From contig OY970368.1 in the NCBI GenBank assembly GCA_963718615.1, positions 4,992,001-5,056,000 of the forward strand: DNA of 64,000 bases, written 5' to 3'. The notes under the pieces were generated by a model. The model was given only the letters and a program-made list of their open reading frames with translations, did not search any database and was not told where the DNA came from. Positions 7,145-60,418 of the stretch are shown here, in pieces. Position 1 is the first letter of the stretch; the number at the start of each line of letters is the position of its first letter. Made by a program: the position numbers and the translations under genes. This stretch comes from an uncultured cyanobacterium (GTDB lineage: Bacteria > Cyanobacteriota > Cyanobacteriia > PCC-9006 > JAAUQQ01).

Positions 7145-7226
7145 GTGGTGTGAGGAGTGAAAGTTCGAGTGAAAAAACCTCTGGAGTCGAAACACGGCCA
7201 GACGCCCAGGGGTTTTTTCTTTTTTC
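7145..7226 (+). ncRNA. Yfr2-family cyanobacterial small RNA (putative)
   Basis: 5' GTGTGAGGAGT (complement of the Yfr1 core ACTCCTCACAC), GAAACACGG inside a long hairpin ending in a U-tract, TATTAT -10-like box at 7136-7141. Confidence 0.6.
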
Positions 7227-21644: not shown

Positions 21645-21925
21645 TCCGCTAAAAAATCCCGTTCCACCTTCAGCTTGCCGATTTGCCGATACAGCTCGTT
21701 GATTTCTGCCTGTTTATTCGCTTCCTCCTTTCCTCTATCAGATGTCTGGCCTGAATCAAAGACGCTGCTTGCCCCTTCCAAGAGCTGCCTCTTCCACTGA
21801 TGGATCAGCGTTGGATGCACATTGTGTTGGCTCGCCAGTTCCGGCACCGTCTTTGCCCCTTGCAAGGCTTCCAAGGCGATTCTCGATTTGAACTGGGCGC
21901 TGTACTGTCGGCGTTTCTTGCTCAT
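21602..21925 (-). CDS. IS3 OrfA (HTH)
   Basis: RRQYSAQFK...HPTLIHQWK...LKVERDFL; overlaps orfB in the -1 frame. Confidence 0.93.
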   Translation of the reverse strand: MSKKRRQYSAQFKSRIALEALQGAKTVPELASQHNVHPTLIHQWKRQLLEGASSVFDSGQTSDRGKEEANKQAEINELYRQIGKLKVERDFLAECSAKLGLSSEKPW

Positions 21926-22240: not shown

Positions 22241-22329
22241 ACATAACGTTGCCCATCACCCGCCGTAAATAACCTTCGAACTACAATAGATGACTTCTTT
22301 GCGGTCGGTGTGCATGGTCGTTGTTAGAC
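22241..22329 (-). other. integron attC site (locus A, distal)
   Basis: On minus strand: R'' GTCTAAC, left arm CCATgCACaCCGaCCG pairing with right arm CGGCGGGTGATGG, R' GTTATGT; 89 bp. Confidence 0.8.
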
Positions 22330-22387
22330 GGCTTGCAGATGAGGTCTCTCAAGCGGCGAGTTGATGGTTGGACGAGTAATCTGCAAT

Positions 22388-26603: not shown

Positions 26604-27694
26604 GGTTCCCCCTCCGTTTCGTCAGCAAAGTCACCGGACAATTCAGCCTCAATTTCCTCAATGGTAGGGAGGACAGTTTGGAGGCGATCGGGAAGGGACT
26701 GCACCAGTTGGTATTCAGCCACACCGATCGGTTTGTTGCTATTCCGGAGTGCATACTCCGCTACCACAGAATTTTTACTTTTGCACAAGAGGATGCCGAT
26801 CGTCGGCTGATCGTCGGGATGTTTCACCTGGGCATCCACCGCACTGAGGTAAAAGCCTAGTTGTCCCGTGTGCTCTGGCTTGAAGGAGCCAGCCTTAAGC
26901 TCGACCACGACATAGCAGCGCAGCTTGAGGTGATAAAAGAGGAGATCCATGAAAAACTCGTCACCGCCAACATCCAGCAGCACTTGTCGTCCGACGAAGG
27001 CAAATCCCGCCCCCAGTTCCAGCAAAAACTGAGTAACATGCTTGATTAGAGCGTTTTCGATTTCCCGTTCGTTGGCCTCCTTTCCCAGCACGAGGAAATC
27101 GAAGCGATACGGATCTTTCAGGGATTCACGGGCTAGATCAGACTGGGGAGTGGGCAAAGTCCGACTAAAATTGGTGACGGCTGCACCGCTACGATCGCGC
27201 AGGCGGGACTCGATGTGCATAACGAGAACGTTCCGCGACCAGCCATGCTCCACGGACTGTGCCGCATACCACAGCCGCTCCTGAGGCGTTTTGAGCTTAT
27301 CCAGCAAAGCGATGTGGTGATACCACGGCAATTGTGCAAGACCCACTTGCACAATTTGGCCCGTTGCGATTTGGTCAGTAACCTGCTGACCCATCATTTG
27401 CCCATCTGGCCAAGCCCTGGCAAAGGCACGCATATATTTGAGATTGCGAGGAGAAAAGCCCTTCATTTCAGGGAACGCCGTGCGGAGATCGTGGGAGAGC
27501 CGATCGATCACCTTCGCGCCCCAGCCCTGTGCTGCCTGCCGATCGAGGATATCCTTACCGATTTCCCAGTAAAGCATCACGAGTTCGTGATTTACTGCCA
27601 TCGTGGCCCGCTGCTGCGCTGCATGGATACGCAGTTTCAAGTCAGCGAGCCATGCTTGGTAATCGGGGGGAATGATGTCGGATTTACGATTCAT
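26600..27694 (-). CDS. DUF1016/YhcG family PD-(D/E)xK protein
   Basis: LYWEIG, GFSPRNLKYMR, KDPYRFDFL, FLLELGAGFAFVGRQ, DLLFYHLKLRCYVVVELK. Confidence 0.92.
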   Translation of the reverse strand: MNRKSDIIPPDYQAWLADLKLRIHAAQQRATMAVNHELVMLYWEIGKDILDRQAAQGWGAKVIDRLSHDLRTAFPEMKGFSPRNLKYMRAFARAWPDGQMMGQQVTDQIATGQIVQVGLAQLPWYHHIALLDKLKTPQERLWYAAQSVEHGWSRNVLVMHIESRLRDRSGAAVTNFSRTLPTPQSDLARESLKDPYRFDFLVLGKEANEREIENALIKHVTQFLLELGAGFAFVGRQVLLDVGGDEFFMDLLFYHLKLRCYVVVELKAGSFKPEHTGQLGFYLSAVDAQVKHPDDQPTIGILLCKSKNSVVAEYALRNSNKPIGVAEYQLVQSLPDRLQTVLPTIEEIEAELSGDFADETEGEP

Positions 27695-30600: not shown

Positions 30601-30767
30601 TTCTCGCGGAAGTTCTTTTCTAGGGAGGCGCGATCGGTGATGTCTTGGCGGTATTCGTATTTGAGTTTTTGGAGCGTGCCGATAAAGCCGTATTCGATGT
30701 CGTCCTCTCGGAGAACCGAGGGCGCGGCCTGGTGTGACGGGTAGTTGATCTCAGAGTCAGTGGGCAT
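27684..30767 (-). CDS. hsdR: type I R-M restriction subunit
   Basis: DVLILINGVPAVQIELK, HTTGSGKT, DECHRS, FTGTP, MLLTGFD, QAFSRTNR; ATG at 30767 preferred over the ORF-track start. Confidence 0.96.
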   Translation of the reverse strand: MPTDSEINYPSHQAAPSVLREDDIEYGFIGTLQKLKYEYRQDITDRASLEKNFREKFEALNRCRLTDSEFARLLDEIVSPDVFTAAKTLREINAFTRDDGTPLNYTLVNLKDWCKNTFEVVNQLRINTDNSHHRYDVLILINGVPAVQIELKTLGISPRRAMEQIVEYKNDAGNGYTKTLLCFLQLFIVSNRDRTYYFANNNTRHFAFNAEERFLPIYEFADEANQKITHLNDFADRFLQKCALGKTLSRYMVLIQSEQKLMIMRPYQVYAVQRIVQCIEDDAGNGYIWHTTGSGKTLTSFKASTLLKLNDHIHKCLFVVDRKDLDRQTREEFNKFQAGCVEENTNTAALVRRLLSEDYADKVIVTTIQKLGLALDENSKRNKQRRKSGQATYKDQLEALKDKRIVLIFDECHRSQFGENHKAIKAFFPKAQLFGFTGTPIFEANATLKQIEGTQASMRTTEDLFQKPLHAYTITHAIEDGNVLRFHVDYFKPKEEKGKKLPKPGEAIAKRAVIEAILAKHDAATAGRRFNAILATASINDAIEYYGLFKTMQAEKQAEKQADGTEFRPLNIACVFSPPAEGNQDVRQIQEDLPQEKADNEEDPEGKKAALKAILADYNSRYGSNHKLSEFDLYYQDVQKRIKDQQWPNADFPAAQKIDITIVVDMLLTGFDSKYLNTLYVDKNLKYHGLIQAFSRTNRVLNGTKPYGNILDFRQQQEAVDAAIALFSGEKTSEQAREIWLVDKAPIVIQKLEEAVQQLDSFMKSQGLTTAPEAVPNLKGDAARAAFCAQYKEVQRLKTQLDQYTDLTEDNKAAIEQVLPEERHRGFKGAYLETAQRLKAQQGKGKGADQPVPDNVDQLDFEFVLFASAVIDYDYIMGLIAKFSAPGSGKAKMSREALIGLIGADAKFMDEREDIAAYIATLKAGEGLSETAIREGYARFKAEKDGRELAAIAGKHGLAAAALQAFVDGILERMIFDGEQLGDLMAPLDLGWKARTQAELALMDDLVPLLTKRAAGRDISGLSAYES

Positions 30768-30802
30768 AGTGGTCAGTTGCGAAAAAGAGCCTTGAACGGG
30801 AT

Positions 30803-30885
30803 GCGGAATTGAGCGATCGCATCCCACAGTCGCTTTTCGAGCGAAGCGGTGTCGGCATTGTTTTCGGTGGGGGCGTCCAGTCCAT
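30803..30885 (-). pseudogene. frameshifted 5' fragment of a second, different hsdM-like gene
   Basis: ATG at 30885 gives MDW, then after a 1-nt shift APTENNADTASLEKRLWDAIAQFR, resembling the HsdM N-terminal LEKRLWDAADQ(F/L)R motif. Confidence 0.6.
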
Positions 30886-30913
30886 TAGTTCTCAGCTCGT
30901 TCTCTGTATATCG

Positions 30914-31000
30914 GTCTAACGGTTGCGGTCAGCGGTTGCCGATACTTTTGCATCCTACCCAAGCAGCTTTGGTCAATCCGCTGCACCGCAATTGTTATAC
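30914..31000 (-). other. integron attC site (locus A, proximal)
   Basis: On minus strand: R'' GTATAAC, left arm TTGCGGTgCAGCGGaTTG pairing with CAACCGCTGACCGCAA, R' GTTAGAC; 87 bp, 24 bp after the stop of the 552-aa gene. Confidence 0.88.
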
Positions 31001-31024
31001 AGCGTATCTATTTGGTTCGTTATG

Positions 31025-32683
31025 CTACCTTTTTCTTTTAGATTGTTGAAAGAGTAAGCCAACTGGGGATGCTTTCATCGTTTTTGCCTCTTTTTGAATC
31101 TCCTGAAACTTATTAGGTAATTCCTTCAATTTAGGTACATCAAGCAATTGATCAGCAGCAAATGCTAATAGACCAAAGGTTGGTGCACCGCTAAGAGCCG
31201 CTGCAACCTCAATAGTTCCAATTGCAATCCAACTTCCCACATCAACACCCGCAAACTTCCAAGTTTTATTACGAAGCTTTGTCATATTTTGCTGGTGTTG
31301 CTCAAAAGCACCACGAATGTTATCAACCACCTGATCAGTAGTCTGAAAGAAATTGGTTGGCTCAGATGCTGCAATATCAGATACTCCTCTGCCCAAAATT
31401 TCTCGGAGTTCTTCAGTAGCACCCTGTTGTCTCATTTCAACTAAAGCTTCTGGTGGGATATTGCCAAGCCATTGCATCTCACCTCTAGCAGCAGACTGAA
31501 GCCCTCGCACAACGTGTAGAGGAGTTAAGTCAGTGTTTGATACACGATCTGCATCGTATTCAAGTTTCCAATTAAGATATCTCCAAGATGTTTCAGCATC
31601 TATGAGTGGGGTTCCCCTAAGTTCTAGGCTCCGCCTCAATAAATCGTTGGCTTGCGACATTCGACCAATGAAATTTGGAAGAATAATATCACCCGCACGT
31701 TGTGGATTAAAGACTCTACCTTCTCCTCGCATATACTCGCGAATTTGTTCATCTAGAGTTTGTGTAGCTTCGGTATCAAAAAGAAGAAGATCAGGATTGG
31801 CAAGTGCAGCAACAAGATCACTAGGTTGCTCAAACTGTTTTGCATAATCTTGTAGCTCGTCAATTGACTCAAAGTTTCTTCCAAACATTGTAGAAACGTG
31901 CTTCAAACAATCACCCTCTGCCATAGAGTGAATAAACTCTGAATAACCTTCCTCTAAATCAAGCTTGTCAGGAACGATCGCAATGATTGGTGTATCAACT
32001 TCTGCAAGTGCTAAAGAGCGGTAACGTAATATTTGTAAACCAAACCGAAGCACTTCATATACTAATCTTTTAGGTTCCCAGTGAGGTACTAACCGTGATA
32101 TTCGCAGTAGAGGATCAGGAAGAATAATTGTATCAACATATAGACCGCAGCTAGAGGCAATGCTATGCCCTCCAGCAGGAAAGAGGGAGCCTCCATAAAC
32201 TGCTTTAATTCTATTTTGATCCTCGCTATGAATCCAAGCAGGATCTGCTATGTTTTTCCAAAACTCCTGAATTTGTTCAAGAAACTCAGGGAGATGTTGA
32301 GCAGCTTCCTGTACCTGATTAGCATCTTGTATATAGGCTCCAGCAATTTGATGAGGTTCAGCATTACGCTCTTGCATAACCTGAAATAGATCACCAAATT
32401 GGTGATCTATTGCTCTGAAAAAGGCTTCTTGTACTTGTTGTGGCGAAATAGCCTCTTTCCACTCTTCCCGATCTTGAAAGTGAGCCATCATAAGAGCCAT
32501 AGACCGCACTGTCCCATCTACAGTATCCGGATCTACTAGCCCATCTGGTGCAAGGCGTACCCTTTCTAAACTTTCCAAAACATCATCGGCAAGGTGTTCT
32601 GCAAGATGAATTTTGCCTACCTGAGCCTTCTCTCGAAGAATCATAATTCGCCGATGAAGCTCTTCTCTGTCAGTATCAGACAT
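31025..32683 (-). CDS. hypothetical cassette protein, 552 aa, candidate defence effector
   Basis: AT-richer than flanks, no exact HIP1 site noticed, bounded by GTTATAC (32837) and attC; hydrophobic pair near the C-terminus. Confidence 0.8.
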   Translation of the reverse strand: MSDTDREELHRRIMILREKAQVGKIHLAEHLADDVLESLERVRLAPDGLVDPDTVDGTVRSMALMMAHFQDREEWKEAISPQQVQEAFFRAIDHQFGDLFQVMQERNAEPHQIAGAYIQDANQVQEAAQHLPEFLEQIQEFWKNIADPAWIHSEDQNRIKAVYGGSLFPAGGHSIASSCGLYVDTIILPDPLLRISRLVPHWEPKRLVYEVLRFGLQILRYRSLALAEVDTPIIAIVPDKLDLEEGYSEFIHSMAEGDCLKHVSTMFGRNFESIDELQDYAKQFEQPSDLVAALANPDLLLFDTEATQTLDEQIREYMRGEGRVFNPQRAGDIILPNFIGRMSQANDLLRRSLELRGTPLIDAETSWRYLNWKLEYDADRVSNTDLTPLHVVRGLQSAARGEMQWLGNIPPEALVEMRQQGATEELREILGRGVSDIAASEPTNFFQTTDQVVDNIRGAFEQHQQNMTKLRNKTWKFAGVDVGSWIAIGTIEVAAALSGAPTFGLLAFAADQLLDVPKLKELPNKFQEIQKEAKTMKASPVGLLFQQSKRKR

Positions 32684-32830
32684 AGTTGAGGGTACCCCTA
32701 ACTCTACATATAGTCAATTCTAATCAATTCACTTGTGATTTGACCTAAATGTAGCGGGACTTCGTTGAAGCCTGAACATTATGCCCTAGCAGGAAATCTT
32801 CACAGGCTGTCTTCAGCAGAGAACGAAGCT

Positions 32831-32870
32831 GTATAACAATCTGATTAGACTGAATGACCTCCACCTAATC
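32831..32870 (-). other. attI-like recombination site (locus A)
   Basis: Minus strand GATTAGGTGGAGGTCATTCAGTCTAATCAGATTG|TTATAC; GTTATAC is the exact complement of the next attC's R''; 29/40 identical to 52918-52957. Confidence 0.7.
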
Positions 32871-32891
32871 CCCAGACTACAGGGTCTTATA

Positions 32892-34721
32892 CCCGGATTT
32901 CTCACCAGGGCGGATAGAGAGTATCAGGCTTGCCCGAAATGAGATGAGCAGTCTGTTGACTCGAGCAATAGAGGATGCCTGAGGCATCTTTCAGGCTGTC
33001 TATGCTGTAAAGGTAGTCATTGTGCTCTAGATATGGGGCTTCAGGCAGATTTTGAGCAGGTCAAAGCAAGGGTGTGTAATCTCACCCTTGGAGAGTCGTT
33101 GAATTAAAGTCGGAGCGAAAGGCTAGAGTTCTACTCATCGGTCTATCCTGGCCTAGGGAGTCGTCTGCGCAACTGTTGTGCTGCCGCTTCAAAGAGGGTT
33201 TGTATGGGCGAAGCGAAAGTGAATGCGACGAGAATGCGCCTGACAGAGATGCGAACCTGTGCGCCAAGCTTGAGCAGCTTGCGTCGAATGGTGCCCAGAG
33301 TCGCATCAGCGAGTTCAGTTTTGGCGAGTGCCTTGAGGCGCAGGGCCTGCATCAAGACATAGGCGAAGGATGAAAACCAGAGTCTGAGCTGATTGCTTTC
33401 AAAGTCATGGGTGGAGGTGCGGTCGCTGAAGAGGTCAAGCTGATGCTCCTTGATGCGATTTTCCATCTCTCCTCGCGGACAGTAATAATCGCGGTGAAGG
33501 TGAGCGGGATGGGCCTGCTGTGCTGTCAAAGAGGTGACAACGAAATGGCGACGTGGGCCATTGCCATCGTAGGTGAGCTTGCAAATGACGCGACGCTCAC
33601 AGCTCCAGGATTTAAGCGTGGCATAGCTCAAGGACTGATGCCAAACCTGGGGCGGAACCAAGCGGTTGAGTTCAGCCTCTAGTTCACTTGCACTCTGCTC
33701 TAACAGAGGTTCTAAGGTGGCAGCAACCGTTTGGCGCTGGGCCTCATAAACGGCTTTGGCTCGCTGTTCTAACCCCCAAGTCAATTGGCGCAAGCGCTCA
33801 TTGCTGCTGTGGGCAAAAACAAAGTCCACCTGGGCTTCACCTTCACACCACAGCATGATGTCATCTCGGCTGTAAGCACTATCGCCGCGCACCAGAATCT
33901 TCACCTTCGGCCAATGACCTCGAATCTGAGCCACGATGCGTTGGAGTTCTTCTAACGCTCCCGCTGCGGGGTCCACATTGGCCGGTCGCAGTTTTGCACT
34001 CAACAAATGGCGACCACTGAAGATGAGCAACGGGGTGTAGCAGTCATGGCGGTAATACCCATTGAACGCTGAACCTTCCTGGGTGCCATGGGTGGGGTCA
34101 TCGGTGACATCCATGTCCAGGATGATTTGTTTCGGTTCACCTTCGAGTTGTTCGATGAATAGCTCCACCAAGAGCGCCTCGATGGCAGCCGGGTCCAGGC
34201 TCAGTTTCACGTAGCGCGAATCTGACAAGTCGCGGGGGACATGCATCGCTTGCTCCAATCGGTTGAGGGTGCTCTTGCCCGCTAACGGTGCACAGCGCGG
34301 ATGCTGGCTTTCTAACTGACCCAGAACTACCCCAAATAATCGCTCATGCCGAAGGTCGTCATGGTCATTCACGTCCTCGTAGCCTTGCACCAATCCATAA
34401 AGCCGTTGCCCGAGCAGCGTTTTCAATTCATGTTGCACCCGGCTGCCATCGCGGTGATCCGTAAAGCACTCGGACAGCCGCTCACTGATTCGATATAGCT
34501 GGTCGATTTCTCGAATTAGCAGCAGCCCTCCATCACTGCTGAGCTCACCACCGCTAAAGTTCGCTACTATCTTGCGTTGATTCAGGCGTCCAAACTCGTA
34601 GCTTGGCAAGTTACACTCTGTTTGGGTCGGGGCCATCTTTGCAAACCGCTGAATGTCTTGTGGTTATTACATTCTCGCTGGTTGGTGACCCCGATCCCTC
34701 GGCACTGGTGAGATATCCGGG
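32892..34721 (-). mobile_element. IS1380-family insertion sequence, 1830 bp
   Basis: Terminal IRs CCCGGATTTCTCACCAG / CCCGGATATCTCACCAG (16/17), 5-bp target duplication TTATA. Confidence 0.93.
33143..34636 (-). CDS. IS1380 DDE transposase
   Basis: FSGGELSSDGGLLL, GYEDVNDHDDLR, LDMDVTDDPTHG, VRGDSAY, RGEMENRIKE. Confidence 0.95.
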   Translation of the reverse strand: MAPTQTECNLPSYEFGRLNQRKIVANFSGGELSSDGGLLLIREIDQLYRISERLSECFTDHRDGSRVQHELKTLLGQRLYGLVQGYEDVNDHDDLRHERLFGVVLGQLESQHPRCAPLAGKSTLNRLEQAMHVPRDLSDSRYVKLSLDPAAIEALLVELFIEQLEGEPKQIILDMDVTDDPTHGTQEGSAFNGYYRHDCYTPLLIFSGRHLLSAKLRPANVDPAAGALEELQRIVAQIRGHWPKVKILVRGDSAYSRDDIMLWCEGEAQVDFVFAHSSNERLRQLTWGLEQRAKAVYEAQRQTVAATLEPLLEQSASELEAELNRLVPPQVWHQSLSYATLKSWSCERRVICKLTYDGNGPRRHFVVTSLTAQQAHPAHLHRDYYCPRGEMENRIKEHQLDLFSDRTSTHDFESNQLRLWFSSFAYVLMQALRLKALAKTELADATLGTIRRKLLKLGAQVRISVRRILVAFTFASPIQTLFEAAAQQLRRRLPRPG

Positions 34722-35190
34722 TTATACAGAGCTGCTTCAGTCTATTCCCCAAATTAGGAATATTAGACCGAACCAGAGTCGGTATAATCCCCAAAAACGA
34801 ACAATTAGGCGGAATGTCATTCCGCCTAATCCCGGATTTAGCGTCTTAGCCCGAATCTCATTCCTCATAATATCCACAATCCCCCGGATAAGACGATCAC
34901 CAGGCTTTTCCTGTCAAAAATCTTTGCATAGCATTTCGCCTAATCCCCCAAATCCCGCCTTAGACCGAAGCACCGAACATCCGCCCCCTTCAACAACACC
35001 TCCAGTTCAACCATGAAACCGACCAATTAGAGGCATGCAGTTCGGGGTCTGGGCGTTTGGCAAAGAAACAATCAGAGAACCGAAGCAGCCTGATTGCCCT
35101 GGTACCCAGCAGCAGCGATCGCAACCTTCCCACCTTCCCTGGGAAAACTAGAATCATCCGCTCAGGCTCATCCCGGTACCTGCTAGTCCC

Positions 35191-50225: not shown

Positions 50226-52157
50226 CTATACAGTCGCCGCCTCGCGTTTTTTTGCAGACTGTACTTCGAGATAAATCAACAGGGCATTCACATCCGCCGG
50301 ATTAACCCCCCCAATGCGCGAGGCTTGGCCAATGGTTAGCGGACGGACTTGGGTGAGCTTTTCGCGAGCTTCCATGGAGAGGGTTTCGATCGCCATATAG
50401 TCCAAATTATCGGCTAACTTACGGTGTTCTTGACGGGCGATCGCATCAATTTGCTTCTGTTGCCGCTGCAAATACCCTGAATATTTAATCTCAATCTCCG
50501 CTCCTTCCTTTTCTTCCCGAGCCAGCGACGCCGTACCGAGGCCATAATGGTCCAAATCGCCATAGTGAAATCCAGGCCGACGCAGCAGATCTGCCAAGGT
50601 AATGGCATCTTTAATTTTTTGCTCGGTGTCTGCCATGATCTGCTGACCAACGGCTTCGTGGGCTTTGATGCGGGTGCTGTGGAGGCGTGCTTTTTCGGCG
50701 GTGATCTGGGCTTGCTTTTGCTGGAACAACTGCCAACGGCGATCGTCAATCAGGCCAATTTCTCGACCCACAGGCGTCAAGCGCTGATCGGCATTATCCG
50801 ATCGCAACAGCAACCGATATTCCGACCGACTGGTCAGCATCCGATAGGGCTCACGCAACTCTTTCGTACACAAATCATCTAGTAGCGTTCCCAAATAGCT
50901 CTGTTCCCGAGGGAAGATTACCGGGTCTTGGCCGCGCACCAACCGCACGGCATTAATCCCGGCCACGATGCCCTGGGCAGCGGCTTCTTCATAACCCGTG
51001 GTGCCATTGATTTGCCCTGCACAAAATAGCCCTTCGACGCGTTTGGTCATCATCGAGGGAAAGCATTGGGTCGCAGGCAAATAGTCATATTCGACGGCGT
51101 AGGCCGGTCGCAGCATGGTACAGTTTTCGAGGCCCGGTAGCGTACGCAACAGTACCAGTTGCAAATTCTCAGGCAGTCCAGTAGAAAATCCTTGAATATA
51201 CAACTCCGGGATGTCGCGCCCCTCCGGTTCAATAAAAATTTGGTGCGAGTCCTTATCGGCAAACCGCACGATCTTATCTTCGATGCTGGGGCAATAGCGC
51301 GGGCCTTTGGCATCGACGTAGCCGCCATAAATCGGCGTTAAGTGCAGGTTCTCCCGAATCATTTGGTGGGTGGCGGCGGTGGTGCGGGTGAGGTAGCAGG
51401 GCATTTGCTCTCGCTCCACCCAGGCGTCCGGGTCAAAGCTAAACCAACGCACATCTTCGTCGCCCGGTTGGGGTTCGAGAACACTGTAATTGACTGAGCG
51501 TTTATCAACGCGGGCGGGGGTGCCGGTTTTGAGGCGATCGGTTTCAAATCCCAAGCGGTTCAGGGTTTCCGTTAGCCCAACCGCCGCAAATTCCCCGGCC
51601 CGACCCGCTGGCATGGATTTGTTGCCCACCCAAATCTTGCCCCCCAGGAACGTACCGGTTGTTAAAACAACTGCTTTTGCCTTAAATGCTGCACCAAAGT
51701 AGGTCTCAACGCCCTGGACTTCTTCGTTTGGCCCCAGGATCAGATCGGTGACCATGCCCTCGCGCACCAGCAAATTTTCCTGGTTATCGACGATCTGTTT
51801 CATGATCGCGGCATATTCCCGCTTATCGGTTTGCGCTCGTAGCGCCCAGACGGCGGGGCCTCGGGAGGCGTTGAGAATGCGTTTTTGCAAGTAGGTGCGA
51901 TCGGCCAGTTTGCCAATTTCACCGCCCAGGGCATCGACTTCGTGGGTGAGCTGGGATTTGGCAGGGCCACCGACGGCGGGGTTGCAGGGTTGCCAGGCGA
52001 TGCGATCGAGATTCAGCGTTAGCAGCATGGTTTTGCAGCCCAACCGTGCCGCCGCCAGGGCTGCTTCACACCCGGCATGACCGGCCCCGACGACGATGAC
52101 GTCGAATTCGTCTTGGAAGTCGCGTGGGAAATTATGGGTAGCGATCGCAGTGGGCAT
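50226..52157 (-). CDS. mnmG: tRNA U34 carboxymethylaminomethyl modification enzyme MnmG/GidA
   Basis: [46 protein letters not shown]; ATG at 52157 preferred. Confidence 0.98.
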
Positions 52158-52356
52158 GAGAACAGGTATGGCTCTGTCAGGGACTAGAGCCTTTATTTTA
52201 TCGGATTCTACGAATTCCCTGTTAGCTGGCTCCGTATACAGATCTTGCACTTATCCTTTGCGGCAATCGATCATTCTGAATTCCTCAGCAAAGATCGTCT
52301 GTGGCCAGGGTTGATAGATAATTGATTGGCAGGAATCAAATGCTCCACAGTCAATT

Positions 52357-52473
52357 ATGAAGTTGCTGACTCGCGACGCTACTGACTATATCAATGACCA
52401 TCTAGACCAGGGGTTGAGTTTAGACAAATTAGCGACGATCGCCCACCTCAGCCCTTATCACTATGCATATTAG
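52357..52473 (+). pseudogene. AraC-family HTH fragment
   Basis: MKLLTRDATDYINDHLDQGLSLDKLATIAHLSPYHYAY* is the first AraC HTH, truncated. Confidence 0.7.
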
Positions 52474-52661
52474 GGTTTCTAGGGATTTCGATTGCAAGCC
52501 ATATCCCGAAAGGGCTTCGGGAAATTTTAGTGCTTAATATCGCAAGTTTTGTCCTGTACAGAGCGAAATAGTAGGTCCTCTGGGCCATCTCATCAACAGA
52601 TACTTACCCTTTTCCACAGGGTAGAAATCGATAAAATCGTTGCTGATACAGAGTTTCAGCT

Positions 52662-52684
52662 ATCCTTACCTTTAGAGTACTACC
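52662..52684. mobile_element. possible IS1-family terminal repeat remnant
   Basis: TCCTTACCTTTAGAGTACTACC (GGTAGT... on the minus strand) abuts the point where the intI-like frame stops; recognised from memory of IS1 ends. Confidence 0.3.
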
Positions 52685-52718
52685 CCTGGTCAAGCAATTT
52701 TTTGGGTCTGGGTTCCAT
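52680..52718 (-). pseudogene. 5' stub of an integron integrase-like gene
   Basis: MEPRPKKLLDQG* matches the typical IntI N-terminus (..PKKLLDQVR..); divergent from the attI-like site as in canonical integrons. Confidence 0.65.
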
Positions 52719-52797
52719 GGCGGTTTCATAGAGAAAAGTTACGAAACCCTAACTTGCATAATATTTTATAAAGGACGCCGTGCTATCTGGCAGGGTA

Positions 52798-52944
52798 GCT
52801 ATACTGAAATGAGTCCACCTAATCTACTAATGAAGGTGTTATGCAGACATATGGCTACCTAATCTCCTTTAGGGAATTGTTAGATGGACAGATTTCCATC
52901 TAACGCGTCCAAAGCGTGACTAGATGGACTAGATTCAGTCCAAT
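52798..52944. repeat. phased array of four 26-bp imperfect palindromes (40-41 bp period)
   Basis: Units start at 52798, 52838, 52879 (perfect GTTAGATGGA-N6-TCCATCTAAC) and 52919. Confidence 0.8.
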
Positions 52945-52957
52945 AATATTGTTAAAT
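52918..52957 (+). other. attI-like recombination site (locus B)
   Basis: GACTAGATGGACTAGATTCAGTCCAATAATATTG|TTAAAT; 29/40 identical to the locus A site; lies between the intI stub and the first attC. Confidence 0.7.
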
Positions 52958-53041
52958 CGCAGCGGCAATATGAATCACTGAGGAGGCTTGCCTATAGATT
53001 TAATGTTAGCGCTTGGGAACACTACAAACAACTCCGCTACG

Positions 53042-53157
53042 AATTAACATATCGCTGCAACCGACGCAACAAAAAAAGGATTGATGAGCCAGCCGCGCTA
53101 TCAACATGCGTTGATAATAGCTAGATTTCTTGGCGTGGCTGAGCTAAATCGTTAGAC
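53042..53157 (+). other. integron attC site (locus B, proximal)
   Basis: AATTAAC-ATATCGCTGCAACCGACGC ... GCGTGGCTGAGCTAAATC-GTTAGAC; 116 bp. Confidence 0.75.
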
Positions 53158-53199
53158 AGAAAACCTATAATTTATAAATATGATTCATAGACTAACTTT

Positions 53200-54621
53200 A
53201 TGGAATGTAAAGCGAAGAAGTATTTCTCAGTTGAAGTTGACTTTGAGCTAGACTTTTGCACGCATGAAGCGAAAATTTACACAACAGACAGGTTTTATGA
53301 GCTGAAGACAGTATCTGGTGAGTTAGGCGCAGAATCTAGTTCTGATAAAAAAGCCTTTTTAGTGATAGAGGTATGGACTCAATTGAATGACACTGAGTCT
53401 TCCATAAATGTTCTTTTAAATACTCGGACTCCTATTCTAATTCTTCTTAGTATAATTAGCTATCTCTTAGATTATCCATTGACTATTTATGAAGCAGCAT
53501 CAGGCGAAACTGGGATTGCCTCAGATGAAAAACCTAATAAAATCAAAGTTTCAAAGTTTGTTCACAGTAAGATTGACAAATCAGATGACCTCCTCAAAAT
53601 TTTAGAAGCTATTTATGAGAGTGGAGAAAGCGTCAATGAATTTTTGGTTTCTGTCTTAAGTCGTTGGCATAAAGCTCGTTATTTAGAAGAACAAGATGAT
53701 GCTAGCTTATATTACGAGGAGAGCTTTCTGGTTTATTTCCATGTTATAGAATTATGCTCTAATCATTACAGCAACCAACAAAGCAAGGAAGCGCAAGACC
53801 AAATAGAAAGATTTACAAGAGAACTTCTTTCAAATACGTTAAAACTGCGGGACAATCAATTAGAACAAGCTAGTCAAGAGAAATACAAGGCAGTTCGCTC
53901 GATTTTGCTGGCTGATGGGCAAATATCAATAACATCAAAAACATGTTATTTTCTAGATCGAGTAAAGTTATTAGACCTCAAAACACAGTATTTTGTAGAG
54001 CAACTGGTTAAAATACGTAATACGATTGCACATGGTCGTCCTGTAAATCACAAAACACTAAGCTGGCCTCTGCCACCATTTTTCTCGATCAATGGTGATG
54101 TAGGAAATTTTATCTTTGAAATCAGGGCATTTACAGGTCGAGTTATTGGCGCGTATCTATCAATTGAAGCTTGGATGGATAAGTGGTCGGATGTCCATGA
54201 TTGTTTACATGTGCCGCCAGAATATATCAAAAAATTCATAAATGAGAACTCCTTTAAATCTATTTCACCAACTGATTTCCTAAAAGGTACGATAGAGGGC
54301 GTAAGACCAAGCTCTTTGGTGAAGCAATTTTTATTAAATAGGATGAAATTTCATGAGCTTGAAATAGGATTGAAGTCATTTTTGCTTGATGTAAAAGTTG
54401 ATGAAGATAGCGCTTTTGAAATTTTTGAGGCATCAATAGTGTTGGCAGACTCATCAGACAAGCAATTATCTGATAGATGCAGAAATATAGTATTTGATAT
54501 ACATAAAAACGAATTAGCGTGGTATTCAAATATAAAAGATGTTCTTAGAGAAATAGAGCAGCAAGGAGTTAAGTTGGTCTGGTTTCGTGAATGGATCGAA
54601 ACTGGTGGTCATAGGAGCTAA
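53200..54621 (+). CDS. HEPN-motif (ApeA-like) cassette protein, candidate antiphage RNase
   Basis: AT-rich; SFLVYFHVIEL followed by RNTIAH (RxxxxH); flanked by GTTAGAC and attC. Confidence 0.7.
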   Translation: MECKAKKYFSVEVDFELDFCTHEAKIYTTDRFYELKTVSGELGAESSSDKKAFLVIEVWTQLNDTESSINVLLNTRTPILILLSIISYLLDYPLTIYEAASGETGIASDEKPNKIKVSKFVHSKIDKSDDLLKILEAIYESGESVNEFLVSVLSRWHKARYLEEQDDASLYYEESFLVYFHVIELCSNHYSNQQSKEAQDQIERFTRELLSNTLKLRDNQLEQASQEKYKAVRSILLADGQISITSKTCYFLDRVKLLDLKTQYFVEQLVKIRNTIAHGRPVNHKTLSWPLPPFFSINGDVGNFIFEIRAFTGRVIGAYLSIEAWMDKWSDVHDCLHVPPEYIKKFINENSFKSISPTDFLKGTIEGVRPSSLVKQFLLNRMKFHELEIGLKSFLLDVKVDEDSAFEIFEASIVLADSSDKQLSDRCRNIVFDIHKNELAWYSNIKDVLREIEQQGVKLVWFREWIETGGHRS

Positions 54622-54651
54622 GCTGTGAACCAATTGCTATGAAAGAAATCT

Positions 54652-54739
54652 GTCTAACAATCCCGTTGCACACCGACCGTATAAAGTTGGTTGGTCAAGC
54701 CCAAGAGGTAATGGCGGCAGGTGAACGGGGTCGTTAGAT
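54652..54739 (+). other. integron attC site (locus B, distal)
   Basis: GTCTAAC-AATCCCGTTgCACaCCGaCCG ... CGGCAGGTGAACGGGGTC-GTTAGAT; TCTGTCTAAC is the exact complement of the cassette start GTTAGACAGA. Confidence 0.88.
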
Positions 54740-55474
54740 GGAATCCGGGTCCACCCCAATTGACCTCAAATAGTCCGCCAAGCGATCAGCCCGCTGGCGC
54801 TCTTCCCTGAGCTGTCGCCGCTCTGCGCTGAGCTGTTCTTGCAAATCTCCAATCACCTGCTCCGAGAAAGGATACGGCTGACCCTGGGCATCGTGCCACA
54901 GCAACACCTCCTGCTCAATACCGCCCACCACCTGTCGCCCGCGCCCCAAACCTAAACCGATCTCTGCCATCCAAAAGGGTTCACCGATTTGGAGCTGATA
55001 GACCCCGTTTTCTAAGCGATACAGCTCGAAGGGTTGATGCTGATCGCGCCGCCAATACTCAGGGTTGTAGATGACGGAGTAACGCACGCCAAGACGAGCA
55101 TAGAGGTCGAGTTTTTCCTCATATTCTCCGTTGTAACGATGGGAGACCATTTCGAGGGTGAGGATGGGTACGATTTCGTTCTCTTCCCAGACGGCGTAGC
55201 TTTTGCGGGACTTGCCATCCTTTTTGCGTTCTACGCCCAGGCTCAAAAATGCATCCGGCACCACGGGCACTCGGGGATTCAGTCCAGTGGTGTGGTAGAC
55301 CGCCATATCAACGGCAAAAAACCAATCCATCCGTTCGGACCAAAGATTGGCCAGGGCCAAGAGGAGGAGATTGGGCAGGAGGTTTTGATCTTCGTTGTCC
55401 ACGGGGGTATCGTCCGAGCAGGGCAACTCGTCAGTTGTCGGTAATGCTGTAACATCCAGCGGCTGGGAAACCAT
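54734..55474 (-). CDS. Uma2 family putative endonuclease
   Basis: LPCSDDTPVDNEDQ, VPDAFLSLGV, LEMVS, EKLDLYARLGV, C-terminal coiled coil. Confidence 0.92.
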   Translation of the reverse strand: MVSQPLDVTALPTTDELPCSDDTPVDNEDQNLLPNLLLLALANLWSERMDWFFAVDMAVYHTTGLNPRVPVVPDAFLSLGVERKKDGKSRKSYAVWEENEIVPILTLEMVSHRYNGEYEEKLDLYARLGVRYSVIYNPEYWRRDQHQPFELYRLENGVYQLQIGEPFWMAEIGLGLGRGRQVVGGIEQEVLLWHDAQGQPYPFSEQVIGDLQEQLSAERRQLREERQRADRLADYLRSIGVDPDSI

Positions 55475-56185: not shown

Positions 56186-56300
56186 GAAGAGACTTCTATT
56201 GCCTGTGGGGTATGGTGTCTGAGGTTTTTACCTATGAATCATATGCGATCGCTTTTTGTAATTATAATGTAGTTATTCAGTGGTGTGCGATATCAACGGT

Positions 56301-56588
56301 ATGGATAAAATCAGGTTCGAATGGGATCCGCACAAGGCAGAGGCCAATTATCGCAAGCACGGTATTTCTTTCGAGGAAGCTCAGACAGCTTTTTACGATG
56401 ACAAGGCTAGGTTAATCCATGATCCTGAACATTCTCTAAACGAAGACCGCTACATTTTGCTTGGCTTCAGTCAGGTATTGCGGTTGTTAATTGTGTGCCA
56501 TGTGTACCGGGAGAATGATGAGGTCATTCGAATTATTTCGGCACGTCTTGCGGCGAAGTCGGAACGCAGGCAGTACGAGGGCTTTTAA
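56301..56588 (+). CDS. BrnT family toxin
   Basis: FEWDPHKAEANYRKHGISFEEA, EDRY, IRIISARLA. Confidence 0.92.
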   Translation: MDKIRFEWDPHKAEANYRKHGISFEEAQTAFYDDKARLIHDPEHSLNEDRYILLGFSQVLRLLIVCHVYRENDEVIRIISARLAAKSERRQYEGF

Positions 56589-56589
56589 T

Positions 56590-56817
56590 ATGCAACAGGA
56601 ATACGATTTTTCTCATTCGGTTCAAAATCCTTATATCAAGAAGCTGAAGAAGCAAATTACGATTCGGCTGGAAGAGGAGGTAGTAGATTATTTTAAACAG
56701 TTAGCTGAGGAGACTGATATTCCTTATCAGAGTTTGATTAATCTGTATCTTAAGGACTGTGTGCGATCGCAACGCAAAATCGCGATCGCGTGGAAGGATT
56801 CGGCTTTGGCTGAATAG
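56590..56817 (+). CDS. BrnA family antitoxin (RHH)
   Basis: EYDFS, ITIRLEEEVVDYFK, IPYQSLINLYL; starts 1 nt after the toxin stop. Confidence 0.9.
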   Translation: MQQEYDFSHSVQNPYIKKLKKQITIRLEEEVVDYFKQLAEETDIPYQSLINLYLKDCVRSQRKIAIAWKDSALAE

Positions 56818-57896: not shown

Positions 57897-59819
57897 CTAG
57901 GGGCAATTCTTGTCTTTTGGGAAAAATATCAGTCTTGAGTTGCTAGTGATGTTGGCACATATATCTATGCGCAACAGAAGAGTATAAAAGAGATTGTACC
58001 CACGCATAAATTCTGGAGAAGGTATCACCTCATTAGGTATCCAAGGAGGCAACCCTGACAAACGGTACTCATGAGGGGTCACTAGCAGGTGACCTGGGAG
58101 ATGTCCCGTCGGCGCTGTGATGTCAAAACTCAATTTTTGATATAACTTCCAGCTTTTCCCTATGCCGAAAATGCCTTTATTGCACCAACCTACGTGGACA
58201 CCAAACTTTTCCCAGTTGCTATCGTATGTAGTCGGATAGCCGTAGTTAGACCAGATTTTGCATTGCACACTAAAGCCGAACTTGTTTTTGCTGTACTTTA
58301 CCCACAGACGATCGATGTTCTGTAAATCCAGGCATGGGAAATGCCTAATATCTTTAACTCGCAGCCAGCATTCTTTTTGCCGGTTCATCACTTTGCACAT
58401 GCGGTCAGCAGTTTCCGTGTCAGCAGCTTTCCAATCTTGAGCCGCAAGCAAATCGCGTAGTTTGGCATAGTAGTTCTCCCCAAATTGCTCTGAGCTTACA
58501 TCGTCTTTATCAAGCTGCTTTGATTTGACAGCCGCTTGGTTCTTTCGTTCTGCTTTGGCATGTTTCTGTCTTTCTGCCTCCCGTTGCCGTTGATCTACCG
58601 CTTGGGCGGCGGCTTGTCGTTGGCGCTCGGCTTCCGCTTCTCGTTGTTTTCGTGCGGCTTCCGCCTGTTCCTGGCGTTTGCGTTCAGCTTCTGCCTGCTG
58701 CTGGGCTTGGGCTTGCCGTTGGCGCTCCAGCTCAGCCACATATCCCGCTAAATCATAACCACCCAACGCCGCCCGCTCGATCGCGGCCACATCCTCCGGC
58801 TTCAGCCGTAGGTGGGCGCGATAGTCTTTCAAATCAGCAATGATGCGCGACCCCAAGGGTGATTCCTGCGCCAAGCACTGCCGCAGCGTCTCCTCGTAGT
58901 CCTGCCGCTTGCGCTGATACTCCCGATAGGGCTTCAGCACCTCCGCCTCAATCGCCTCCGCCTCCGCCCCAGCAATCTGTAGCTCCACCCGCAAGTTTAG
59001 GAGCAATCGCCGCGCCGGAATCGTAAATGCTCCCGATATCGCTCGACGCTCGACCTCCTTGCGATACTTCAGCTTCGGGTCATCCTGGGGAGACCGCGCC
59101 AGCCGAATCTGATACCCCTCCCCCTTGAGATGAATAATGTCAGGACTCATTACAGGCGAAGTCTCCCGAACCTTGCGCCCCGCATAGCGGTGCAGCTCAT
59201 CCACCGTGATCACCCCATCCCCATCGGCATCAGCGGCTCCACTGGCAATCCCCTCCACCAGGTAGCGGGTGTAGATCGACAACTCCTCGCCCTTTTCCTC
59301 AAAGGAATAATCCACCGCACTGGTCGAAGTCAGCACCACCCGACCCTCGGCCCCGAGCTGCTCCTTCAGATCAACTTCGCCATCATCCCGCGCCACCAGC
59401 TCCCCAAAGGCCCCGCTAAAGCAGCAGTCGAGAATCAGCACCTGATACTTGGCCTTACAACCGCGAATGCACTCATGGAGAAACCGTGCAGGGGTGGCCG
59501 TGGCGCGAATTAACTTATCACGCTGTTTTTCCGTATTCGCAGCGGCAAAGTAGAGATCGCGGCGATCGTCCTTCACCCCATGCCCCGAGAAGAACAACAG
59601 CACCAAATCCTCCGGCTGCCGATCCTGAAACCACAGCTCAATCTCCCGCGCCATCTCCGGCTGGGTGGGGTTAACCACAGATTTCGCTTCATCGAACCTA
59701 CCCATTTCCGGATTCAGCAACACCCGCCGCAACGCCGCCACATCCTGAGACGCAGCCGGTAACGGTTGCAACCCCTCGCCATAAGTATCAACGCCGATTA
59801 AGAGTGCATACTTTCCCAT
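57897..59819 (-). CDS. caspase-like peptidase C14 + coiled coil + GUN4-like domain protein
   Basis: KYALLIG, FFSGHG, LDCCFSG; YAKLRDLLAAQDWKAADTET, IDRLWVKYS..KFGFSVQ, APTGHLP. Confidence 0.9.
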   Translation of the reverse strand: MGKYALLIGVDTYGEGLQPLPAASQDVAALRRVLLNPEMGRFDEAKSVVNPTQPEMAREIELWFQDRQPEDLVLLFFSGHGVKDDRRDLYFAAANTEKQRDKLIRATATPARFLHECIRGCKAKYQVLILDCCFSGAFGELVARDDGEVDLKEQLGAEGRVVLTSTSAVDYSFEEKGEELSIYTRYLVEGIASGAADADGDGVITVDELHRYAGRKVRETSPVMSPDIIHLKGEGYQIRLARSPQDDPKLKYRKEVERRAISGAFTIPARRLLLNLRVELQIAGAEAEAIEAEVLKPYREYQRKRQDYEETLRQCLAQESPLGSRIIADLKDYRAHLRLKPEDVAAIERAALGGYDLAGYVAELERQRQAQAQQQAEAERKRQEQAEAARKQREAEAERQRQAAAQAVDQRQREAERQKHAKAERKNQAAVKSKQLDKDDVSSEQFGENYYAKLRDLLAAQDWKAADTETADRMCKVMNRQKECWLRVKDIRHFPCLDLQNIDRLWVKYSKNKFGFSVQCKIWSNYGYPTTYDSNWEKFGVHVGWCNKGIFGIGKSWKLYQKLSFDITAPTGHLPGHLLVTPHEYRLSGLPPWIPNEVIPSPEFMRGYNLFYTLLLRIDICANITSNSRLIFFPKDKNCP

Positions 59820-59875
59820 GGAACTGGTTTCAAAGGCTACGGCTGCGGGTCAGGATGAGTTTGCTCAGACCAAGC

Positions 59876-60307
59876 CTACTCAGGCTTGTTTGGTCCAGAC
59901 GGGTTTTGCTGCTCCCGTATCTTAACCCGCAAGTTTGCCAACCGCTCAATCGTATCCGCCGCCTGATCCAACTCCTGTTTGTTGCGATACTCAATGTTGT
60001 AAGTCATATCGTCAATTTCGCCCGATAGCGTCAGGGTCTTGCCATAGCGCAAGTTTCCCAGGTAATCCATCAGCTTCCCTAGGTTCTCGCGGTTGATCTC
60101 GGTAGTCAGCACCCCCATCAGAAATGCTGCCGCCCCAGATTTAGCCGATTCTGGGATATCTTCCTCACGAGCTAGACGGGCGGATTGCACCAAGTCGCCA
60201 GACTCCAGTTCGTCGGCGATGGTCACTAAAAAGTTCTCTAACTCAGCGCGATCAAGGTCAAAACCGGCTTCGCTAAAATCGATTAAAAAAGAACGTGATT
60301 CGGACAT
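59876..60307 (-). CDS. EACC1-like small protein upstream of the caspase gene
   Basis: 143 aa acidic protein with PESAKSG followed by a hydrophobic stretch, co-oriented directly upstream of a C14 caspase. Confidence 0.6.
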   Translation of the reverse strand: MSESRSFLIDFSEAGFDLDRAELENFLVTIADELESGDLVQSARLAREEDIPESAKSGAAAFLMGVLTTEINRENLGKLMDYLGNLRYGKTLTLSGEIDDMTYNIEYRNKQELDQAADTIERLANLRVKIREQQNPSGPNKPE

Positions 60308-60418
60308 GGCGGCTGATCCGTAGGCTAACGCTCAGCCCATCATAATGGAAGTTCATGCTGGGAATATGCGCAGTGGTGCATGGCAATCAACAGATCAATT
60401 GTGCCGATCTCGTCGAAC

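Follow-up and report, generated by a model that had tools for sequence, protein, structure and literature searches.

The locus described here, part of a 64-kb stretch of DNA from an uncultured cyanobacterium (hereafter the window), is best read as a cyanobacterial-type chromosomal integron platform, one or two cassettes long, that lost its integrase, and we put the probability of this reading at about 85 %. It comprises, in order, a truncated AraC-type gene, a truncated MITE-like element, an intI stub, an attI site, an element without an open reading frame (ORF) and a protein-coding cassette. Stub and attI array are both homologous to those of real platforms, and the original prediction of a decayed integron with intI stub, attI and cassettes gains support from this homology to real cyanobacterial integrons, namely those of Halotia wernerae (L063) and of a Cyanobacteriota metagenome bin (L070). 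With these complete integrons the locus has in common the attC family, the multi-palindrome attI, the N-terminal IntI sequence and the divergent layout. It differs from them in that both encode an intact IntI (TIGR02249 scores of 438 and 463 against a cut-off of 265) and carry five attC sites each, which belong to the attC family of the window. Their palindrome arrays are similar in style, but the half-site differs by lineage, with TCCACCTAATC at the present locus as compared to TTCCGTATAAT in L063 and L070.

The integrase itself has been reduced to its extreme 5′ end. On the minus strand, an ORF that runs from an ATG at 52718 to a TAG at 52680 reads MEPRPKKLLDQG followed by a stop, as had been claimed for a 12-codon frame; 11 of these codons (MEPRPKKLLDQ, 52686–52718) precede the abutting element and constitute the intI remnant, and the open frame then continues to GGG TAG, with the stop (52680–52682) inside that element. 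Comparison with IntI N-termini, on which the prediction depended, returned matches to true cyanobacterial integron integrases, both with an N-terminal profile and in alignments to L028 (MEPRPKKLLDH), L052 (MEQRPKKLLDQVRD), L063 (MEQRPKKLLEQ) and L007 (MESRPRKLLDQVRD). The first 10 residues of the stub are identical to the intI remnant of Leptothoe, and the intact Halotia IntI shares 9 of the 12 residues of the full frame. With a profile of 11 IntI N-termini, the stub scored 14.5 bits and was the sole match in the window below E 0.1; its E value is 0.0037 when the 3,060 six-frame peptides of the window are searched and 0.081 when all 66,830 are. At the DNA level it shares 84 % identity over 38 nt with the 5′ end of intI in Nodosilinea (L007; E 1e-4). 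Taken alone, a stub only 11 codons long would carry modest significance. A tblastn search with two intact cyanobacterial IntI proteins (E≤10) detected no further IntI-like sequence in the window, and where a complete integron has intI, the gene of a tyrosine recombinase with an IntI-specific extra domain, beside its array, codons 1–11 alone are left here. The stub is too short to scan with TIGR02249, a model that begins at about residue 8 of an intact IntI; its likeness to IntI is shown at the extreme N-terminus only.

Divergent from the stub, as had been predicted, lies the attI region. It is preceded by the intI-attI spacer (52719–52799), presumably the promoter region, which contains GAAACCCTAA at 52743–52752, a motif also seen by eye in the corresponding spacer of Leptolyngbya PCC 6406 (L054). 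A complete integron has its cassette promoter (Pc) within or close to the 5′ end of intI. No sigma-70 consensus match was found in 52686–52960, spacer included, a scan that cyanobacterial promoters may not fit. The accessory array (52800–52950, plus strand) is recognised by half-site motifs, fold and homology and consists of four imperfect palindromic units (52800–52824, 52837–52864, 52878–52904 and 52919–52944) that are spaced by approximately 40 bp and composed of RTTAGRYGG-type half-sites, five of which fall within about 110 bp of the array as compared to 20 in the whole window. The array DNA folds better than expected (z = −3.5) and is homologous to the arrays of L054 (75 % identity over 107 nt, E 2e-8) and of L002 (E 0.002); a matching architecture beside intI or intI remnants is found in L063, L070, L036, L007, L015, L028, L042, L052 and L029. 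The four repeats are presumed to be integrase-binding sites. The last half-site, CAGTCCAAT, acts as L box; next come the spacer AATATT and the R box GTTAAAT (52951–52957, plus strand), where the 17-mer GTCCAATAATATTGTTA is identical in L080. Similarity to L080 ends directly after GTTA, and crossover would take place between G 52951 and T 52952. The crossover region of the window's other platform, ATTCAGTCTAATCAGATTGTTATAC, is identical at 19 of 22 positions. Given this homology (L054, L080) and a layout in which it adjoins intI and points in the opposite direction, the attI-like site of the prediction very probably is an attI.

An attC site has R″ (RYYYAAC) and R′ (GTTRRRY) ends that pair, forms an imperfect hairpin of 57–141 nt and bears unpaired bases on the R″/L″ arm. 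The prediction had named two such sites, and one of them stood up well: the 88-nt attC at 54652–54739 (plus strand; R″ GTCTAAC, R′ GTTAGAT) forms a hairpin whose 5′ arm, on the top strand, has an unpaired G or GCA, belongs to a set of 82 sequences with compensatory changes at four stem pairs, and reaches 87.9 bits (E 2e-21) under a covariance model trained on 80 cyanobacterial sites together with the two window sites, so that matches to window sites are partly by construction. Sites of other genomes score 28–103 bits. The minus strand of 54652–54739 scores 25.7 bits, a strand asymmetry that is as expected for attC. This site terminates cassette 2 (53152–54733, plus strand; 1,582 bp), which is bounded by GTTAGAC at 53151–53157 and GTTAGAT at 54733–54739, and lies downstream of, and in the same orientation as, the plus-strand ORF of the cassette. 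The GC content of cassette 2 is 35–37 % as compared to approximately 55 % around it (35–41 % for the island overall).

The cargo gene of cassette 2 (53200–54621, plus strand) is intact and encodes a 473-aa protein, full length when compared with its homologues of 470–484 aa. All 46 of these homologues are unnamed or annotated as "hypothetical", the closest being that of Kovacikia minuta (89 % identity). HEPN nucleases are characterised by an Rx4–6H motif within a four-helix HEPN fold. The cargo protein contains an RNxxxH motif (R273-N-x3-H278), the residues R273, N274 and H278 of which are invariant in 26 sequences, and matches Pfam HEPN_RiboL-PSP at E 0.001 with 19.5 bits, below the cut-off of 28.4. 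Its AlphaFold2 model (pLDDT 87) had no match at E≤0.001 in a fold search against the PDB, and the protein had no match in PADLOC. Its probable role is that of an RNase of HEPN type in stress response or phage defence, which fits the defence genes in cassettes of the window's other platform.

Cassette 1 (52952–53151, plus strand) is a 200-bp element devoid of any ORF with a start codon, and a 63-codon open frame within it gave no significant match in Pfam, NCBIfam or tblastn. It contains a conserved core, GTTAGCGCTTGGGAACAC, at 53004–53021 and aligns over its length with elements located directly after attI (L035, L018) or after attC (L004, L017, L005). No Rfam match was obtained, and RNAalifold gave no consensus pairs for a shared hairpin around the core across six copies. 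The 116-nt site that would close this cassette (53042–53157, plus strand; R″ AATTAAC, R′ GTTAGAC) is the part of the predicted pair that did not stand: the covariance model gave no match there, even when a 551-nt stretch was searched at E≤10, and neither did half-site HMMs. Its R″ departs from the consensus, and its fold, which leaves R″ and R′ unpaired, is no better than that of shuffled sequences (z −1.5 and −0.9). It is homologous to the well-formed 86-nt attC of L035 (ACCTAAC...GTTAGGC, −24.8 kcal/mol) and can be recognised only through this homology, as a worn version of the site that ends elements of this ORF-less family. As the first attC thus fails all objective tests, the count of two cassettes depends only on homology to an element family.

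The intI frame ends exactly where an element end, GGGTAGTACTCTAAAGGTAAGGATAG (the reverse complement of 52660–52685), begins, which bears out the claim that the frame stops at such a junction. This terminal repeat, which abuts the intI break, belongs to a fragment of a MITE-like element (52564–52685) whose other terminal repeat is missing. The fragment shares 77 % identity over 123 nt (E 9e-20) with positions 9727–9849 of L001, where a copy of approximately 257 bp, the size of a MITE, is flanked by inverted terminal repeats (9727–9752 and 9958–9983) and sits just upstream of an attC. The designation of the element end as IS1-like found no support: IS1 membership is defined by an IS1-type transposase together with IS1-type terminal repeats, and no transposase ORF or Pfam match is present in 52250–52760. 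Separately, an unexplained 18-nt inverted repeat (52462–52479 and 52743–52760; 16 of 18 positions complementary, 263 nt apart) brackets the stub. A 13-nt inverted repeat between the stub and the AraC fragment was also considered as microhomology and was dropped as not significant.

To the left, the island is flanked by the N-terminal 38 codons of a truncated AraC/Rob-type regulator (52357–52473, plus strand) with weak HTH_AraC and RobA/SoxS matches (E 0.004–0.02). This fragment faces away from a minus-strand gene at 50226–52250 that we take, from its translation, to be mnmG. To the right lies a Uma2-family gene at host GC (54734–55474, minus strand; Pfam Uma2, E 3e-12), the stop codon of which falls inside the attC R′ box. 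By self-BLAST, 52200–54900 has no repeats elsewhere in the window, and BLASTN of 52250–53200 gave no match among PLSDB plasmids. No orthologous locus was found among 119 loci by tblastn with MnmG, the AraC fragment, Uma2, the GDSL protein, YetF, the 473-aa protein and ORF552; the only matches were unrelated Uma2 and BrnT sequences. The second integrase-less platform that had been predicted some 20 kb away is indeed present, at 22.2–35.0 kb of the window, and there an IS4-like element (approximately 32892–34722, with GTATAA on both sides) is inserted into the attI array. Motifs of the CCACCTAATC type, one of them near this element, were first read as IS-end remnants, an interpretation that was rejected because they are half-sites of the attI array. 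Taken over the window, the cassettes carry defence-type cargo, comprising a type I restriction-modification operon, a protein with an Avs1c-like N-terminus and the HEPN-like protein.

The 88–89-nt attC family of the window is present at at least 119 genome loci, and the fetched flanks of 80 attC loci, which define the scope of the count, contained an intact IntI in two cases, a broken IntI in three and clear N-terminal remnants only in six. Matches in L025 and L073 and a second match in L060 were left out of this count (24–37 % identical to IntI) and are taken to be other tyrosine recombinases. N-terminal intI remnants beside such arrays are found in L028, L042, L015, L052, L029 and L002, the last of which, a metagenome-assembled genome, combines an internally deleted intI at the platform with P0164, an integron integrase that is closely related, intact and encoded on a second contig.

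Two explanations would dispense with an integron ancestry of the whole locus. Stub and palindromes could belong to the interior of a MITE or IS whose ends are the 18-nt inverted repeat, which encloses the stub and has MITE-like sequence between its two arms. Yet GAAACCCTAA, contained in the right arm, also occurs between intI and attI in L054, the left arm falls in a stretch with weak alignment to the inner part of the L001 element, and the enclosed segment is repeated neither in the window nor among PLSDB plasmids nor, with the exception of L001, among the 119 loci. The palindrome array, moreover, falls outside the repeat, and we consider this explanation highly improbable; the related idea that the stub is a chance ORF inside a MITE delimited in this way was rejected on the N-terminal and attI homologies. 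Equally improbable is the direct entry of one or more cassettes at a genomic site other than attI (the attG route to isolated cassettes), with stub and palindromes as coincidental neighbours. A preprint (Loot et al., 10.1101/2022.09.11.507474) describes isolated cassettes and small clusters without integrase as common and as possible products of this route, and only one attC is well supported here, but stub, spacer motif, four-unit array and crossover box all correspond to those of real platforms, in order and orientation alike.

A different matter is whether the platform is still in use, as one of several integrase-less docking sites that are served in trans by an intact IntI elsewhere and at which cassettes still turn over. 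In quality, the attI array and the distal attC equal their counterparts beside intact intI (87.9 bits, with sites of other genomes at 28–103), a second platform lies 20 kb away and the low GC content of the cassette points to a recent arrival. Furthermore, the L002 platform with its deleted intI coexists with the intact integrase P0164 on another contig, and only 2 of 80 attC loci have an intact IntI within their fetched flanks. Against this, the 64-kb window contains no intact IntI, the attC between the cassettes is degenerate, and L002 is a metagenome bin, the two contigs of which may come from different cells. In two protein searches, each covering the best 120 of more than 8,000 IntI relatives, none lay on a contig of 6,095,823 nt, the length of the contig that holds the window, a point that is weak and not decisive. 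We regard continued use as conceivable but somewhat unlikely.

For the integrase-less platform that we favour, a conceivable history is that the element was inserted into intI and that a later deletion removed the far end of the element together with the remainder of intI and some of the adjoining gene; this order of events is a guess because only one end of the MITE-like element is present. The locus would be unable to recombine by itself. If another locus in the cell supplied a compatible IntI, the two cassettes could leave together through recombination of attI with the intact attC, and 52951/52952 could go on accepting new cassettes. The worn site on the left of cassette 2 probably keeps that cassette from moving on its own.

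The locus resembles the CALIN and SALIN classes (Cury et al. 2016, PMC4889954; Loot et al., 10.1101/2022.09.11.507474) in having attC cassettes in a short array with no working integrase nearby, and short arrays are frequent, as 1,362 of 2,961 CALINs have only two cassettes according to the latter preprint. Unlike in these classes, a recognisable attI and an intI 5′ stub survive here, and the origin from a complete integron is thus directly readable. A CALIN requires at least two clustered attC sites without intI, and of the two sites here one passes and one fails a covariance model that was built for this analysis and is not IntegronFinder's own; with one attC counted, the locus would be filed as SALIN. 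Cury et al. 2016 (PMC4889954) sought intI pseudogenes by a C-terminal profile and PF00589 only, finding them near 15 of 279 CALINs, and a stub of the present kind would escape such a search. Chromosomal integrons with decayed intI were described by Nemergut et al. 2008 (PMC2426708), who counted as pseudogenes those genes that had frameshifts or stop codons or whose size departed by at least 20 % from that of intI1; all of those pseudogenes keep the IntI-specific domain, whereas only 11 codons remain here. Cyanobacteria are among 11 taxa with a working specific attC covariance model in Ghaly et al. 2021 (PMC8352920), a result with which the 88–89-nt attC family would agree. Sedentary chromosomal integrons have been presented as anti-phage stores in another preprint (bioRxiv 10.1101/2024.07.02.601686), to which the apparent defence-type cargo in the window cassettes would correspond, although the arrays here are tiny and integrase-less in comparison.

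The literature already covers integrase decay, integrase-less attC clusters and attC models specific to Cyanobacteria; the locus is a real but familiar kind of integron decay and represents expected variation. It nevertheless gives a direct view of how a complete integron can leave behind a small cassette cluster without an integrase, an origin that published surveys mostly could not trace because only C-terminal integrase remnants were searched. In addition, it provides a concrete cyanobacterial attI, consisting of four palindromic units and a crossover box, with a matching attC, usable for in-trans recombination assays, and the two platforms add a HEPN-like protein, a type I restriction-modification operon and an Avs1c-like protein to the defence-type cassette cargo. 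More speculatively, filamentous cyanobacteria might maintain a distributed integron, in which scattered integrase-less attI platforms with four-palindrome arrays and intI stubs are under selection and one or a few intact integrases serve them all, the stub perhaps being kept because its region carries the cassette promoter. We consider this doubtful; if it were true, many published integrase-less attC clusters would be such platforms, missed by pseudogene searches confined to the C-terminus.

The locus at 52680-54739 is a real and neatly readable decayed chromosomal integron. It is housed in a low-GC island (35-41 % GC, 52.5-54.5 kb) of a cyanobacterial window that otherwise has a GC content of about 55 % and encodes a Cyano-1 RNA (7144-7224). 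To the left of the island lies mnmG (50226-52250, minus strand) and, between mnmG and the integrase stub, the first 38 codons only of a gene for an AraC/Rob/SoxS-type regulator (52357-52473, plus strand), the rest of which was not found on the far side of the island; to the right follows a Uma2-family gene (54734-55474, minus strand). For comparison, a genome collection was scanned with a pattern based on the well-formed attC at 54652-54739 and on another attC of the window, which yielded at least 119 loci (L numbers below), nearly all from cyanobacteria of many orders as judged by record title, 80 of them with flanking DNA and none of those listed from the window's own genome. A BrnT/BrnA-type toxin-antitoxin pair is located 1.5 kb downstream of the island (56280-56817), and BrnT also has relatives in L047 and L053 as well as within the integron of L070.

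On the minus strand, an ORF running from an ATG at 52718 to a TAG at 52680 translates into MEPRPKKLLDQG, and the original prediction that this is an intI stub was borne out by its match to cyanobacterial IntI N-termini, namely MEQRPKKLLEQVQD in L063 (Halotia wernerae), MEPRPKKLLDH in the intI remnant of L028 (Leptothoe), MEQRPKKLLDQVRD in L052, and MESRPRKLLDQVRD in L007 (Nodosilinea). With a profile of 11 IntI N-termini, the stub was the top peptide of the window (14.5 bits), with an E value of 0.0037 for the 3,060 window peptides and of 0.081 for the full set of 66,830. The stub DNA is 84 % identical to L007 (38 nt, E 1e-4), whose intI runs into the contig end; the similarity stops past GACCAG(G), and therefore 11 intI codons survive (52686-52718). 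The stub is bracketed by an 18-nt inverted repeat (52462-52479/52743-52760, 16/18 complementary, 263 nt apart), the right arm of which contains GAAACCCTAA, also found in the intI-attI spacer of L054 (Leptolyngbya PCC 6406).

Facing away from the stub is an array of four imperfect palindromic units with a spacing of about 40 bp (52800-52944), whose half-sites include GATTAGGTGG and GTTAGATGGA; after it come the spacer AATATT and then GTTAAAT (52951-52957). Folding of this stretch beats 200 of 200 shuffles on the plus strand (z -3.5), and the array aligns with those of L054 (75 % identity, 107 nt, E 2e-8) and the metagenome bin L002 (73 %, 93 nt, E 0.002). The loci share a common design of several palindromes, an L-type half-site, 4-6 bases, and GTTA, with half-site sequences that vary by lineage, and this arrangement is seen upstream of intI whether the gene is intact (L063 and L070), broken (L036), or reduced to an N-terminal remnant (L015, L028, L042, L052, and L029). 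Moreover, the 17-mer GTCCAATAATATTGTTA is identical in L080 and the window, and the similarity stops directly past GTTA, as predicted by a crossover at G/TT. Homology and position thus support 52800-52957 as a putative attI, in line with the site originally proposed. The cassettes could alternatively have arrived by insertion at a non-att genomic site, a process described in the available part of the preprint in which SALIN are defined (Loot et al., 10.1101/2022.09.11.507474); the presence of both attI and stub argues against this route here.

The frame of the stub had been suggested to stop at an IS1-like end. An element end does begin at the break, but nothing links the element to IS1, and no transposase was found around the break. 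The bases directly past it, on the intI strand, are GGGTAGTACTCTAAAGGTAAGGATAG, and window positions 52564-52685 are 77 % identical to 9727-9849 of L001 (123 nt, E 9e-20), i. e., to one half of an element of ~257 bp (9727-9983) whose ends are inverted repeats and that sits inside a cassette, just upstream of an attC. The size of the element fits a MITE, and its ends belong to a MITE-like family (GGGTAGTRC..TAAAGGTAAGGAT). In the window copy, one end only is present and the similarity fades leftward; further left, the AraC-type gene breaks off after codon 38. These data are compatible with an order of events in which the element would have inserted into intI, and a subsequent deletion would have taken its far end together with the remainder of intI and a portion of the AraC-type gene. 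The intI remnant of L028 (about 57 codons) is directly abutted by GGGTAGTGC (L028 5601), matching the window element end; this 9-mer is found overall at chance frequency (19 vs about 18 expected), and the coincidence is suggestive only. The MITE-like family of L001, the window, and L028 may tend to land in integrons.

As for the two attC sites that had been proposed, the one of cassette 2 (54652-54739, GTCTAAC...GTTAGAT, 88 nt) is one member of a family whose sites measure 88-89 nt; among the 120 pattern matches listed, 97 fold with closed ends by our own criterion. An alignment of 80 distinct sites of 84-95 nt and the two window sites showed numerous compensatory changes at four stem pairs, and the resulting covariance model scored 54652-54739 at 87.9 bits on the plus strand vs 25.7 on the minus strand, a score that is in part by construction because the window sites belong to the training set. 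Across the 80 flanked loci, the model gave 131 matches, representing 129 distinct sites by hand count, with at least two sites in 29 loci, one in 50, and none in 1; five sites each make up the arrays next to the intact intI genes of L063 and L070. The candidate at 53042-53157, in contrast, matched neither the covariance model nor the half-site HMM, and its fold was no better than that of shuffles, with unpaired ends. Nevertheless, the 200 bp from the attI crossover to GTTAGAC (53151-53157) align over their length with ORF-less elements elsewhere; members of this family lie directly past attI in the window (52952-53151), L035 (6803-6990), and L018 (571-740) and past attC in L004 (11108-11300), L017 (3895-4085), and L005 (9588-9653). 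Since the L035 element terminates in a well-formed 86-nt attC, the notion of two cassettes is defensible by homology, with the first attC worn. The six copies of this ~200-bp family share the conserved core GTTAGnGCTTGGGAAC, had no Rfam match, and gave no consensus hairpin; a promoter or regulatory RNA is possible. The cassette promoter of class 1 integrons is located inside intI1.

Cassette 2 (53152-54733) carries a 473-aa ORF, for whose product 46 relatives were found; none carries a name beyond "hypothetical", and the nearest is from Kovacikia minuta (89 % identity). R273, N274, and H278 are invariant in 26 sequences. The protein gave a sub-threshold match to HEPN_RiboL-PSP and a confident AlphaFold2 model (pLDDT 87), for which no fold neighbor was found in the PDB at E<=0.001; PADLOC returned no match.

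The existence of another integrase-less platform within about 20 kb was likewise confirmed. It spans 22241-35020 in the opposite orientation with its own attI and contains minus-strand attC sites at 30914-31000 (37.7 bits with the covariance model) and 22241-22329 (88.5 bits). Between them lies a single cassette of about 8.6 kb that terminates at 22241-22329; its genes (22388-30827) are an entire type I restriction-modification operon together with one YhcG/DUF1016 nuclease gene and one for AAA_13. In the first cassette, upstream, a 552-aa ORF (31025-32683) encodes a product with an Avs1c-like N-terminus, and the cassette terminates at 30914-31000. The attI-type crossover box ATTCAGTCTAATCAGATTGTTATAC (GTTATAC at 32832-32838) is identical to the first locus at 19 of 22 positions (z about 4; among 300 shuffles, the best one equaled its score). 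Beyond it lie further palindromes, interrupted by an IS4-like element (about 32892-34722) that encodes a transposase (33143-34636) and has GTATAA on both flanks. No intI stub was recognized at this platform. Uma2-family (putative restriction endonuclease-like) genes lie just past the last attC in both platforms (20030-20656 and 54734-55474), one pointing along its array and the other towards it; at the platform of 22241-35020, gene and attC are separated by an IS3-family element (20781-21925).

Among the 80 flanked loci, IntI is uninterrupted in two, L063 and L070 (TIGR02249 scores of 438 and 463, cut-off 265). Frameshifted or fragmented genes keeping C-terminal parts occur in three (L036, L037, and L060), and N-terminal remnants only (E<=1e-8) in six (L028, L042, L015, L052, L029, and L002); L036 has an additional N-terminal copy at E<=1e-8, and weaker candidates were found in L016, L034, and L080. 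In the remaining loci, the flanking DNA, often truncated at a contig end, gave no IntI trace. Such N-terminal-only remnants of about 24-57 codons recur beside palindrome arrays in unrelated cyanobacteria, and in L002 about 26 N-terminal codons are fused directly to the last ~15. The same bin encodes an intact integron integrase with a near-identical N-terminus (P0164) on a 180,078-nt contig. Beyond the stub, no IntI trace was detected in the 64-kb window, and the best 120 of >8,000 relatives retrieved with two queries included none from its contig.

In the available portion of the study in which CALIN are defined, intI pseudogenes were reported near only 15 of 279 CALIN using a C-terminal IntI profile and PF00589, a search to which N-terminal stubs would be invisible (Cury et al. 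2016, PMC4889954). The accessible parts of other reports put the share of pseudogenes among intI genes at about one third (Nemergut et al. 2008, PMC2426708), present a Cyanobacteria-specific attC model (Ghaly et al. 2021, PMC8352920), and describe chromosomal integron cassettes with defense systems (2024 preprint, bioRxiv 10.1101/2024.07.02.601686). None of the papers listed in literature searches had cyanobacterial integrons or the attI of such integrons as its main subject.

In the Spirulina metagenome-assembled genome L064, an attC (1995-2083) is separated by about 115 bp from the equivalent of the window genes at 58740-60345 (79-81 % DNA identity), where the window has none, which suggests that cassettes are gained and lost at different places in the chromosome from one species to another. 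Given the census of 80 loci and the example of L002 with P0164, integrase-less platforms that keep a stub are common in cyanobacteria and can coexist with an intact integrase. For the two platforms of the window, service in trans by an integrase that would be encoded elsewhere is a plausible proposal.
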